A DNA stretch of 64,000 nucleotides from contig OZ253496.1 in NCBI GenBank assembly GCA_965262115.1, positions 704,001 through 768,000 on the forward strand, given 5' to 3'. A model generated the notes under the pieces. It saw only the letters and a list, made by a program, of their open reading frames with translations, searched no databases and had not been told where the DNA came from. This stretch comes from Nitrospinales bacterium (GTDB taxonomy: Bacteria > Nitrospinota > Nitrospinia > Nitrospinales > VA-1). Of this stretch, positions 31,359-62,292 are shown one piece after another. Position 1 is the stretch's first letter. Each line of letters starts with the position of its first letter. Position numbers and translations under genes: made by a program.

Positions 31359-31802
31359 AACCCTCCCCTTACCCCTCCCTATGAAGGGAGGGGGATATGA
31401 AAAGTAAAAAGCGATGGCAACAATTTTCAACAAGAATACAGAAAAGGCTAAAAGAAAATCTTTGCGCAAAGAAATGCCACCTGCAGAGGTCACTTTATGG
31501 CAAGTTTTGCGAAACAAGCAAGCTAATGGACATAAATTTCGGCGACAATACAGTGTTGACCAATACATTCTGGATTTTTATTGCCCCTCGGCAAAACTCG
31601 CGATTGAAATCGATGGAGATTCTCATTTCAGTGACACAGCAATTCAATCGGATGAAATCCGTCAGAAGGCCATCGAAGATATGGGAATACAAATTCTGCG
31701 TTTTACCAATCAGGATATCTATGAAAACTTGGATGAAGTATTTGAGAAGATTTTAAAACATTTACCTCCCCTCCCTTCATAGGGAGGGGGCGAGGGAGGG
31801 TT
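31359..31802. repeat. ~36-bp inverted hairpin repeats (31359-31395 and 31767-31802) enclosing the DUF559 gene
   Basis: AACCCTCCCCTTACCCCTCCCTATGAAGGGAGGGGGA versus TCCCCTCCCTTCATAGGGAGGGGGCGAGGGAGGGTT. Confidence 0.85.
31414..31782 (+). CDS. DUF559 (Vsr-like) endonuclease domain protein
   Basis: LRKEMPPAEVTLW, KFRRQY, YILDFYC, LAIEIDGDSH and ILRFTN motifs. Confidence 0.88.
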   Translation: MATIFNKNTEKAKRKSLRKEMPPAEVTLWQVLRNKQANGHKFRRQYSVDQYILDFYCPSAKLAIEIDGDSHFSDTAIQSDEIRQKAIEDMGIQILRFTNQDIYENLDEVFEKILKHLPPLPS

Positions 31803-32370: not shown

Positions 32371-32459
32371 GATTCCTATCTCTTCTCGTGGAGCAGTAAA
32401 AAGCTATTTCTTTTTGAGCCAGCGTCACGCTGGCTATTTACCCCTTGTATGTTGTTCAT

Positions 32460-32670
32460 AAGGGGAATTTGTAGTAGTTGTACCTGTGAGCCCTGTGGGA
32501 AGCCGGTTTTGTGTTTTCCACAAGGCTCACAGGGTTTGATTCAGGGCACAATAGATCGTTTACCCCTTGGGCTTTTAAGCCCGTCCCGAAGCGCAGATCG
32601 TTGTGTCCTATTTTGATTAACCCGAACAGTTGCCTGGGCCACTGAGCCCGCATCGGCAAGGCTGGGAGAC
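32460..32670 (+). ncRNA. Predicted IS110 bridge RNA (5' hairpin, target-binding loop, donor-binding loop); ends approximate
   Basis: Hairpin CCTGTGAGCC...GGCTCACAGG. Stem GGGCACAA...TTGTGTCC encloses TTTACCCCT (32559-67) and CCCGAAG (32585-91). A third loop carries ACAGTTGC (32626-33) and CAAG (32657-60). Confidence 0.8.
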
Positions 32671-32676
32671 CAAATT

Positions 32677-33627
32677 ATGAATCAGAAACCCCATTTTATT
32701 GGCATCGATATTTCTAAACTCCATCTGGATGTTGCTGACAGCATGACTCAAGAAACCTGGCAAACCGCTAACAATGAGGAAGGGATTGCTGGTTTGGTCG
32801 AGAGTTTATCCGCCTTAAATCCTCCATTGATCGTTTTGGAAGCCACAGGCGGCTTAGAGATCCCGTTGGCTTCGGCCCTGGTTGCGGGTCGACTGCCAGT
32901 AGCCGTGGTCAACCCACGGCAAGTTCGTGATTTTGCCAAAGCCACCGGGAAACTGGCAAAAACCGATGTCATTGATTCTCTTGTGCTGGCCCATTTTGCC
33001 AGGGCCGTACGTCCTGAGGTCAGGAAAATCAAAGACGAAGAATCTCTTGAACTCTCAGCTCTAGTGACACGCCGTCGCCAGTTGATCGAGATGCTGACCA
33101 AAGAAAAAACCCGTCTAAAACAAGCTCCAAAATGGATATGTAAAGACATTAAGGAGCATATCGAATCTCTTAAAAAACGCTTGCGAAAAATCGATGGCGA
33201 CCTTTCCAGAACCATCAAAAACAGTTCTGCCTGGCGTGAGCACGACCAGATTATACAAAGTGTTCCCGGTGCCGGTCCCGTTCTGGCTGTCAACCTCTTG
33301 GCCGGGGTTTCGGAACTTGGAGTTCTTAATCAGAAGCAAATCGCCGCCCTCATCGGTCTCGCTCCCCTCAATCGGGACAGCGGAAAGTTCCGGGGCCGCC
33401 GGTGTATCTGGGGCGGTCGCGCCAATGTGCGTGCCGCTTTATACATGGCCGCCGTCACTGCCATGCAGCATAATCCCGTGATTCGTACCTTTTACACACG
33501 CCTCATCGAAAAGGGCAAACCCTTTAAAGTTGCCATTACCGCATGCATGAGAAAGTTATTAACGATCATCAATACCATGATCAAAACAAAAACACTCTGG
33601 AATGAAAATCTCATTGCCAGCACTTGA
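32677..33627 (+). CDS. IS110-family recombinase/transposase, 316 aa
   Basis: RuvC-like DEDD residues (GIDISK, LEATGG, KTDVID); C-terminal domain with GLAP..RDSGK serine loop and ACMRKLL. Confidence 0.95.
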   Translation: MNQKPHFIGIDISKLHLDVADSMTQETWQTANNEEGIAGLVESLSALNPPLIVLEATGGLEIPLASALVAGRLPVAVVNPRQVRDFAKATGKLAKTDVIDSLVLAHFARAVRPEVRKIKDEESLELSALVTRRRQLIEMLTKEKTRLKQAPKWICKDIKEHIESLKKRLRKIDGDLSRTIKNSSAWREHDQIIQSVPGAGPVLAVNLLAGVSELGVLNQKQIAALIGLAPLNRDSGKFRGRRCIWGGRANVRAALYMAAVTAMQHNPVIRTFYTRLIEKGKPFKVAITACMRKLLTIINTMIKTKTLWNENLIAST

Positions 33628-33718
33628 CATTTAACACAGTTGCTTCGGGGCATGAAGTACCCGTGCCGGGCATAAAGATTAATGAAGAGGCCATCACATC
33701 TGAGGAAGAATATCACGG

Positions 33719-35914
33719 CTATTTGCCACCCCCGCCAGGGGGTTTCTGGATGCCGATTTGCTGAAAGATATTCCCCATCACACCCATGAAGTTGGCCTGC
33801 TCCTGCTCCAGTATCTGGGCGTTCTTTTTTTCCTGATTAAAAATATTCAGGCGAATCTCCTGCGGCCTTTCCAAAAGTTTGTTCAGGGCCGTGCCGGTTT
33901 GCACCGGGGCGTGGCAGGTGGTGTTCTGGCAAAGATAAACAGTCGGCTCGCCCTTTTCTGCGACCTTGCCTGCAGCAAGCGGCAACAAGTCGCCAGTCGT
34001 TTCGCTTTCATTCCACAGGACAACTTTATTGGGACGGTAATCGGTGTGCAGGACTTTCAACATTTCATCGAAGGATGCATGATCCCGAGATCCGGCAAAG
34101 ACAACCTCTGTCGGCGGAAGATCCGATGCGCTCATTGCCGATAACAGCCCAGTAAAACCTGCCGGACTTCTCTCCATCATGGCGCGAAAAGCATTTAAAG
34201 TTTCTTCTGTTTTACGGATATAAGATTCCTCGCCTGTGAGCCGCCCCAGTTTCAACAGAGCCTGGGCCGCCACCGCGTTAGCAGATGGCAGTGCCTCATC
34301 GGCAGGATTTTTTAACGGGGAAATCAGGGATTCCCCTGAACGACCGGCGAGAAAGAACCCGCCCTCCCCTTCATCCCAGAACTCTGCAATCATGGCGTCT
34401 GCCAGTTCCCGCGCTCGCACGACCCACCGGCTGTCGAGCCCCGCCTCGTAAATAGCGATCAGTCCTTCAAGAAAATAGGCGTAGTCATCAAGACAACCGT
34501 TGATCTTACTTTGGCCATCTTTATAAACGCGCAACAATTTTCCAGCCTGCCATTGTTTGGACCAGATAAACTCGGCGCAACGAGAAGCCGATTCCAGATA
34601 ACTCGAATCGCCCAGCACCGAAGAGCCATGCGCGAGAGCCGTGATCATGAGTCCATTCCAAGCGGTGATAATTTTTTCATCGCGTTCCGGTTTCGGTCTT
34701 TTCTCACGTGCTTGAAAAAGGGTTTCCTTTGCCTTTTTCAAAATATGGTCCGCCTCAAAAATGGGGATGCTTTCGGCTTCGGCCAATTGTTCAACCCGCT
34801 CGCTGATATGCAGGACATTACGTCCATCAAGATGCCCACGGGGAACTAAGCCATAAGCCCGGGCAAAAACCTTGGCGTGTTTGGGTCCCAACAGGTTCAG
34901 GACCTCTTTCAATTCCCAGGTGTACCAAGTGCCTTCCTTACCTTCCGAATCTGCGTCTTGGCTGGCGTAAAAGGCACCCTCATCCGACAACATTTCACGC
35001 AAAAGCCAGCCAAACGTTTCTCTTGCGGTGACCTGATAAATGTCCTGCTTGGTGGCCTGAAATATATCAAGAAAAAGTTTTGCCAACAGCCCATTGTCGT
35101 AAAGCATTTTTTCAAAATGGGGAACCCGCCACTTACGGTCGGTCGAATAACGGTGAAAACCGCCGCCCAACTGGTCGAACAATCCTCCTTCCGCCATGGC
35201 CGTCAAGCTCTTGTCGAGAATATTGAGGGCGTCACCTGTCTGGGCCCAATGCCGCAACAAAAGGGTGTAGTGCGTGGGCTCCGGAAATTTCATGCCCGAG
35301 CCAAACCCGCCATGATCCTCATCAAAACGGTCCAACAAAATGTCCACAGCTCCTCGAATCATCTCATCGTTGGGAACTCCCTGCGCCTTGCCAGCCCGGT
35401 TCTGTTGGGAAATCTTTTGCAGGATATTTTGTGACCGGGTTTCAAGTTGGTCTTTATCGCCGGTGAACAAGTCGTGCGCTTGTTGCAGGACTTCGGCAAA
35501 CCCGGGGCGGTTATATTTAGCGAAGGGAGGGTAATAGGTTCCGCCCAAATAGGGTTTCTGATCGGCAGTGAGAAACATGCTGAGCGGCCAGCCACCGTGA
35601 CCGGTCAGTTCAACCAGAGCTTTCATGTATAAAGCATCCACATCTGGTCGCTCTTCTCGATCCACCTTGATGCTGATAAACTTCTCATTCATGATTTTCG
35701 CGATATCTTCATTTTCAAAAGATTCATGGGCCATGACATGGCACCAGTGGCAGGCGGAGTACCCAATACTGAGGAAGATGGGTTTATTTTCTGCCTTGGC
35801 TTTGTCCAAGGCTTCCGGCCCCCAGGGGTACCATTCAACTGGATTGCTGGCGTGCTGTAGTAAATAGGGACTGGTTTCGTTTTTTAAACTATTGAAAATT
35901 TCTGAATCGGCCAC
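33719..35914 (-). CDS. YyaL/SPATA20-like thioredoxin-domain protein
   Basis: [28 protein letters not shown] and [10 protein letters not shown] motifs. Confidence 0.92.
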
Positions 35915-60355: not shown

Positions 60356-60432
60356 GCGCCCGTAGCTCAGCTGGATAGAGTATCGGTTTCCGGTACCGAG
60401 GGTCGGAGGTTCGAATCCTCTCGGGCGTACCA
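60356..60432 (+). tRNA. tRNA-Arg (CCG)
   Basis: Acceptor GCGCCCG/CGGGCGT, D-arm GCTCAGCTGGATAGAGT, anticodon stem TCGGT-TTCCGGT-ACCGA, GGTTCGAATCC T-loop, encoded CCA. Confidence 0.96.
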
Positions 60433-61604: not shown

Positions 61605-62292
61605 TTTCTAAGCTGCCTGTGCGGCAGTGAACAGGGTGCAATAAGTAGTGCCATTGCCGCTGTTTTTCTAAGCTGCCTGTGCGGCAGTGAACTCGCTGGT
61701 GATCGATTTACGCTTATCTGAATCTTTCTAAGCTGCCTGTGCGGCAGTGAATCTACAATAAAGATTGTCATACTTGAGATCATCTTTCTAAGCTGCCTGT
61801 GCGGCAGTGAACCGGTTGACCAGGGGTTGCCGCTATTTGCCAAGTTTCTAAGCTGCCTGTGCGGCAGTGAACCGTTAAGCTTGCAGTAATTTTGTCGTCA
61901 TGTGTTTCTAAGCTGCCTGTGCGGCAGTGAACTGGGTGAAGCTGGCATGTAGTCGGAATCTCGATTTCTAAGCTGCCTGTGCGGCAGTGAACACGAAAAA
62001 GAGTTTCGGCTTGAGGACATTAGATTTCTAAGCTGCCTGTGCGGCAGTGAACACTAGAAGCCCCATTTGCGAAAGTCATAAATATTTCTAAGCTGCCTGT
62101 GCGGCAGTGAACGATGGACATTTGGCTCGCGAAGTCAAGAAGACTTTCTAAGCTGCCTGTGCGGCAGTGAACACTAGAAGCCCCATTTGCGAAAGTCATA
62201 AATATTTCTAAGCTGCCTGTGCGGCAGTGAACAAGACTTTGTTTTAGGCGAGCTTGCTGGTTTCTTTCTAAGCTGCCTGTGCGGCAGTGAAC
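61605..62292 (-). CRISPR. Type I-F CRISPR array: 12 repeats of 28 bp, 11 spacers of 32 bp
   Basis: Exact 60-bp period. Minus-strand repeat GTTCACTGCCGCACAGGCAGCTTAGAAA has the Cas6f-type hairpin. The repeat at 61725 has one terminal substitution. Confidence 0.97.

Follow-up and report, generated by a model that had tools for sequence, protein, structure and literature searches.

The window analysed here, a 64,000-nucleotide stretch of a Nitrospinales bacterium genome (contig OZ253496.1), carries at 32446-33642 what is, with a probability of about 0.92, a complete IS110-group (IS621-like) bridge-RNA element, whose recombinase would be guided by RNA to the CT core of a hairpin repeat (Table 1). 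A gene for a putative DUF559 endonuclease (31414-31782, plus strand) lies 660 bp to the left of the element, in a repeat-rich region. To the right, a further repeat piece ending in ATCAC was found at 33698-33721, reaching the stop codon of a minus-strand gene for a thioredoxin-domain (DUF255) protein. The window also contains a tRNA gene (60356-60429) and, on the minus strand, a CRISPR array (61605-62292) of 12 repeats matching Rfam CRISPR-DR4 with a 60-bp period. The Rfam search returned no family covering the element itself. The first-pass annotation had described a complete element with an intact recombinase gene and with bridge-RNA guides matching both the target and the donor. The domains, both ends, the CT cores and all four guide matches were indeed present, with every motif string lying where it had been placed, and the recombinase reading frame was open throughout.

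Table 1. Features of the IS110-group element and its immediate flanks, in window coordinates.
Feature	Position	Strand	Basis
Left target half TTTACCC; host flank, left end of the split hairpin repeat	32437..32443	+	empty alleles
TTTACCCCT, left target half plus CT core	32437-45	+	sequence read
CT core, left junction	32444..32445	+	
Right donor half TGTAT, start of the left end	32446..32450	+	
-10 box TATGTT of the predicted circle-junction promoter	32448..32453	+	
GTT arm of the 3-bp sub-terminal inverted repeat	32451-53	+	
Long 5' stem-loop of the predicted bridge RNA	32483..32533	+	fold of 32455-32676
Target-binding loop module; outer stem 32544-57/32596-608, inner hairpin 32569-82	32544..32608	+	
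Left target guide TTTACCCCT; signal in positions 3-9	32559..32567	+	
Right target guide CCCGAAG, reads CT-TCGGG	32585..32591	+	
CG handshake bases of the target loop; C complementary to G at donor position 7	32592..32593	+	
Donor-binding loop module; CCC (32621-23) and GGG (32664-66) form the stem, inner hairpin 32636-49	32619..32666	+	
Left donor guide ACAGTTGC	32626..32633	+	
Right donor guide ATCGGCAAG; predicted discontiguous pairing with CTTGTAT that includes one G-T wobble and loops out two bases	32652..32660	+	
CAAG, within the right donor guide	32657-60	+	reverse complement of CTTG
GC handshake bases of the donor loop; G complementary to C at target position 7	32661..32662	+	
IS110 recombinase, 316 aa; D11, E55, D97, D100, S235-G236	32677..33627	+	
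-35 box TTGACA; shares bases with the TGA stop and stands 17 nt from the -10 box in the circular form alone	33624..33629	+	
AAC inverted-repeat arm, then left donor half ACAGTTG (33636-42); ends the 15-nt right end	33633..33642	+	
CT core, right junction	33643..33644	+	
Right target half TCGGG (33645-49) and remaining hairpin repeat; second unit nested, ends ATCAC	33645..33697	+	

The recombinase contained the N-terminal DEDD RuvC domain (PF01548, E = 1e-25) and the C-terminal Tnp domain (PF02371, E = 2e-20), and its 316 aa fall within the 300-460 aa range of the IS110 family. Residues D11, E55, D97, D100 and S235 aligned with D11, E60, D102, D105 and S241 of IS621 and were invariant (6/6). 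Its relatives with solved structures were ISCro4 and IS621 only. The exact protein formed a cluster of one, and at least 15 plasmid relatives, 46-52% identical, were detected, with no named IS among the 15 listed.

The ends of the element were delimited by copies of another mobile element, which we take to be of the IS3 family from its two translated ORFs. All 17 IS3-like junctions in the source genome (one of them at C1 ~656650-659140) carried the hairpin repeat between the two ORFs; 10 were filled by the IS110 element and seven were empty. Filled and empty alleles differed by exactly the element plus one CT, which fixes its ends at 32446-33642 between two CT cores. A right end reaching beyond the CT was ruled out by the same empty alleles. 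The insertion left one CT on each side, with no other target duplication, and split the hairpin of the repeat. The left end of the element is 231 nt long and its right end 15 nt. The genome contained 26 left ends, 26 right ends and 24 near-full copies, with the CT core found at the left junction in 24 of 25 rows and at the right junction in 25 of 25. A 3-bp sub-terminal inverted repeat, AAC/GTT, matched at 61 of 72 bases in 24 junctions against a shuffle mean of 51 (11/20,000). The unequal lengths of the ends and the short inverted repeat place the element in the IS110 group and not in IS1111. At one place (C1:2144619-2145978), a 163-nt left-end piece was followed directly by a full copy, the junction TTGTGTC-CT lying in the 3' stem of the target loop at a site matching both guides poorly; slippage, an off-target insertion with a later deletion, or an assembly error are possible causes of this arrangement.

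The joined ends give TTGACA-17-TATGTT, a predicted sigma-70-type junction promoter, from which about 210 nt of the left end would be transcribed. In the linear form of the element no plus-strand promoter was found. The spacer was 17 nt in 24/24 junctions, the search having required the -35 start.

Dinucleotide-preserving shuffling of the 231-nt left end (20,000 replicates) yielded the four guide motifs with frequencies of 0.0033, 0.020, 0.0063 and 0.73, and never all of them together (0/20,000). CAAG, present in 73% of shuffles, is no evidence by itself; it is the last part of a 9-nt discontiguous right donor guide predicted to pair with seven bases. The left end (32455-32676) folded better than its shuffles (z = -3.3). 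The placement of the guides in loops, proposed in the first-pass annotation, held for the target guides, both fully open in the unguided consensus fold of 29 sequences, which gave the same four stems; it held less well for the donor guides, which were partly paired there, and the single-sequence fold partly closed the loops: three bases at the start of the left target guide were paired with the right guide, and the left donor guide was in part paired with its right counterpart. With the scaffold drawn from the IS621 layout, 98.4% of cells were paired in the 29 aligned sequences, the stems showed two-sided changes at 12 of 24 pairs (0/500 shuffles; slid controls 34-48%) and four A-N4-G motifs were invariant. 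The handshake rule held in the element, with C32592 facing donor G7 and G32661 facing target C7. In relatives it held in 38/39 and 28/36 cases, the former count being weak because donor position 7 is nearly invariant. In 43 of 51 loci, representing three donor types, the donor guide was identical to the end of the element carrying it; the other eight were mis-anchored on the target loop. One close relative (L102:1360-1439) had a left end without the long 5' stem-loop, its end being followed almost directly by the target loop, which suggests that this hairpin may be dispensable.

The target is a hairpin repeat, CCCC-TNC-GGGG, entered at the hairpin end (TACCC-CT-N-CGGGGCA...ATCAC). The repeat is abundant, has fixed ends and its pattern was present in 20 of 22 same-genus genomes. 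Other copies of the element sat in the predicted target, as they should if the first-pass annotation was right: the 26 right ends of the source genome were followed by CTTCGGG 23 times, by CTGCGGG twice and by CTCGGGG once, the last on a fragment.

Guides and flanks were compared in 100 relative loci, 97 of them with the protein, of which 64 were parsed (33/97 failed), giving 39 distinct guide pairs. One locus was scored per distinct guide pair using an alignment-anchored parse, which needed donor-like ends; two false parses without guides (L009 and L017) and three loci without flanks or a parsed right guide (L003, L024 and L020) were left out. Of 259 left-guide bases, 172 agreed with the left flanks (n = 37; shuffle mean 93, maximum 121), as did 133 of 145 right-guide bases with the right flanks (n = 29; shuffle mean 52, maximum 82). 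Neither value was reached in shuffles (0/100,000 each), counts that overstate the certainty since the loci are kin. By position, the left guide matched in 6, 14, 25, 30, 30, 33 and 34 of 37 relatives, and positions 1 and 2 matched in 8 and 9 of 18 distinct flanks in the source genome, so these two positions carry little or no signal. The 9/9 identity of the left guide noted at first pass is true at this locus and overstates the match, since position 1 agrees at chance.

The targets of the relatives were plainly diverse. Guides reading CT-GAGCN were found in L004, L005, L006, L014 and L028-L036, which were inserted in the palindromic repeat TGTCATT-CT-GAGCG, and L002/L021 were inserted in CCCC-CT-CACCCCCTT repeats; judged by these sequences, the clade repeatedly retargets different REP-like repeats. 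In one genome (G047), with a guide reading CT-AACCC, the two right ends found both agree with it. Agreement was looser in two other genomes. In G016, whose guide reads CT-CCGGG, the five right flanks (GCGGG, CCGGG, TTGGG, TCGGG and TCGGG) comprised one exact match, three G-T wobbles and one mismatch, and the three left flanks matched at 3, 4 and 5 of 7 positions. A broken copy in G013 had a guide reading CT-CCAGG beside the flank TCGGG, which amounts to two wobbles. Such tolerance of a guide G or U towards T or G agrees with the wobble tolerance described for ISPpu10. The recombinase protein was detected in five of the 22 same-genus genomes, twice weakly, a count to be read with the ability of fragmented assemblies to drop IS copies. 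A metagenome scan for close left ends yielded four loci, with guides reading CTTCGGG (L103) and CTTTGGG (L104) among them, and in none of the four were both flanks present.

A somewhat unlikely alternative is that the choice of target needs the DNA hairpin, CCCC-TTC-GGGG straddling the core, besides or instead of RNA pairing, as reported for ISPpu10. GGGGC is retained up to position 16 in all 25 reconstructed sites of the source genome, past the end of the 14-bp guide window, and a target stem-loop raised the efficiency of ISPpu10; however, in that study (10.64898/2026.03.19.712850) the hairpin is located 5' of the core and was no substitute for pairing. The guides of many relatives track unrelated targets that form no hairpin, and G016 has the repeat pattern once in its genome, with three of five right flanks not continuing as the repeat.

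Fifteen of the 24 near-full copies in the source genome retained the intact 316-aa ORF and shared 98.7-100% protein identity. The other nine were broken, seven by a common 10-bp deletion and two, diverged to about 87% DNA identity, by stops. Most frameshifted IS110 copies lay in or beside IS3-like copies. On the strength of the nine broken copies it could be argued that the anatomy is right and the element no longer mobile in its host. We regard this as unlikely, given the 15 intact ORFs, filled and empty alleles of one IS3 site, and the preservation of the promoter, guides and catalytic residues; the near-identical copies and the paired alleles are the grounds for calling the element probably active. 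Contigs from four sequencing runs spanned the element, those of X1 and X4 also covering its left junction, and contained no circle or empty-site joint, such contigs tending to drop rare forms.

In the loop of the repeat, the variable base is the one read by the right guide; this would explain why the main family was confined to T-class repeats. The 150 empty hairpins fell into the classes A (46), G (41), C (34) and T (29), and the T-class bias has P = 1e-10 if the 14 distinct flanks are independent and 6e-6 if nine are. The copies are not independent, as their flanks are shared and mosaic. Several had a common right flank up to the ATCAC end of the repeat and different left flanks, and one right-flank variant occurred in four filled copies with four different left flanks and in no empty copy. 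The simplest explanation is gene conversion or a mosaic assembly, because the outer flanks of the IS3 copies, often common to several copies or unmatched, are shuffled too. These patterns also speak for a founder effect behind the T-class bias, in which gene conversion carried the right flanks along and few real insertions were counted. Such an origin is decidedly improbable: T was found in all 14 distinct right-flank 32-mers, and among 29 independent guide pairs from other genomes, target position 10 followed the guide in 27.

A change of guide was also seen within the source genome. Two diverged copies of the 23 aligned had the right guide CCCGCAG in place of CCCGAAG, and both sat in CT-GCGGG (Fisher p 0.07); rows 2144619 and 2519436, left-end fragments wrongly paired with a right end, were left out of this comparison. 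The two share one right flank over at least 130 nt and so may represent one event. Guides and targets changed in step both within this genome and across relatives, more loosely in G016 and G013, in support of the target specificity proposed in the first-pass annotation. Among the IS3 alleles, the three with TCGTGG were all empty and those with TCGGGG on the right side were empty in four cases and filled in eight, a weak hint that target position 13 may matter.

That the IS110 recombinase itself moves the 41-bp hairpin repeat is hardly credible: although it is the only PF02371 family in the source genome (32 matches, all at loci of this IS110 family), no Y1 transposase (REP mover) was found in that 93.9% complete genome and neither element nor repeat has long target duplications, its donor loop spells the ends of the element rather than those of the repeat, and the repeat pattern is present in more genomes of the genus (20 of 22) than the protein (5 of 22, two of them weak matches), though IS copies may be dropped from fragmented assemblies. 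A speculative and quite unlikely extension of the preferred reading is a three-tier stack of parasites with natural reprogramming, in which one-base guide variants divide the mobile hairpin repeat by loop class and the repeat with its 1.2-kb IS110 element moves as a unit, by means of the repeat's own mover or of IS3. If true, it would explain the four copies with different left flanks, one ATCAC-ended right flank and no empty copy, and a search for the enzyme that mobilises the repeat would gain a selectable handle.

By analogy with IS621, the RNA-guided element would form a circle by excision or copy-out and express its bridge RNA. The loops would pair with ACAGTTG-CT-TGTAT (donor loop) and (TT)TACCC-CT-TCGGG (target loop); D11/E55/D97/D100 together with S235 would cut beside the CT, and the handshake bases would favour strand exchange. 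IS3 copies with a T-class repeat would supply extra landing sites. The 24 copies could have arisen by copy-out, a route reported by two preprints (10.64898/2026.08.31.748434, 10.1101/2025.10.25.684509); weak excision has been reported in a 2026 paper (PMC13626964).

The element is a well-supported addition to the IS110-group bridge-RNA elements, a group whose mechanism has been known since 2024 and is unchanged by it. Bridge recombinases are wanted as genome-editing tools. A compact recombinase (316 aa), highly amplified, distant from IS621 and IS622 and with a natural 7-nt right guide is a reasonable ortholog to screen, and the source genome offers an existing natural test of guide reprogramming by one base. 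Searches of the published papers did not return the element, though preprint supplements may list a close ortholog. Five strings for its target and left end had no match in seven supplementary files of PMC11208160 (files 3 and 4 in part), so the target is apparently unlisted so far. The mechanism and the donor class are already in that 2024 data set: supplementary file 4 lists the donor 11-mer ACAGTTG-CT-TG 337 times and file 5 lists it 713 times, and the rows shown there include a donor-loop sequence similar to that of the element.

IS621 from E. coli (PMC11208160, PMC11208158; PDB 8wt6) shares with the element the DEDD RuvC and Ser Tnp domains, the CT core, a long left and a short right end, a sigma-70 junction promoter, a 5' stem-loop followed by two guide loops, A-N4-G motifs, handshake bases and insertion into repeated palindromes. 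The 9-nt right donor guide with 7 bp of discontiguous pairing is likewise as in IS621 (PMC11208160), and the A-N4-G motifs are spaced as A43/G48, A67/G72, A116/G121 and A150/G155, the flipped A and syn G bases of IS621 (PMC11208158). Unlike in IS621, the donor is ACAGTTG-CT-TGTAT, the natural right target guide has the full 7 nt, the left target guide is effectively 7-8 nt (the 5' side of the loop offers 10 nt, from the conserved G to the hairpin) and the inverted ends are AAC/GTT instead of ATA/TAT. The recombinase is distant from that of IS621 (phmmer E = 1e-30; 316 versus 326 aa). Its best match among solved structures was ISCro4/IS622 (E = 2e-33; PDB 9t56), described as 88% identical to IS621 and as having, like the element, a 14-bp target and donor around a CT core and handshake guides (10.1101/2025.05.14.653916). 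The putative recombinase described here is far from both. ISPpu10 from Pseudomonas putida (10.64898/2026.03.19.712850), also an IS110 element, resembles the one described here in its CT core, junction promoter and multi-copy hairpin repeat target, as well as in a left guide tolerant distally and a right guide strict apart from G-T wobble. The two differ in the position of the hairpin, 5' of the core in ISPpu10 and straddling it here.
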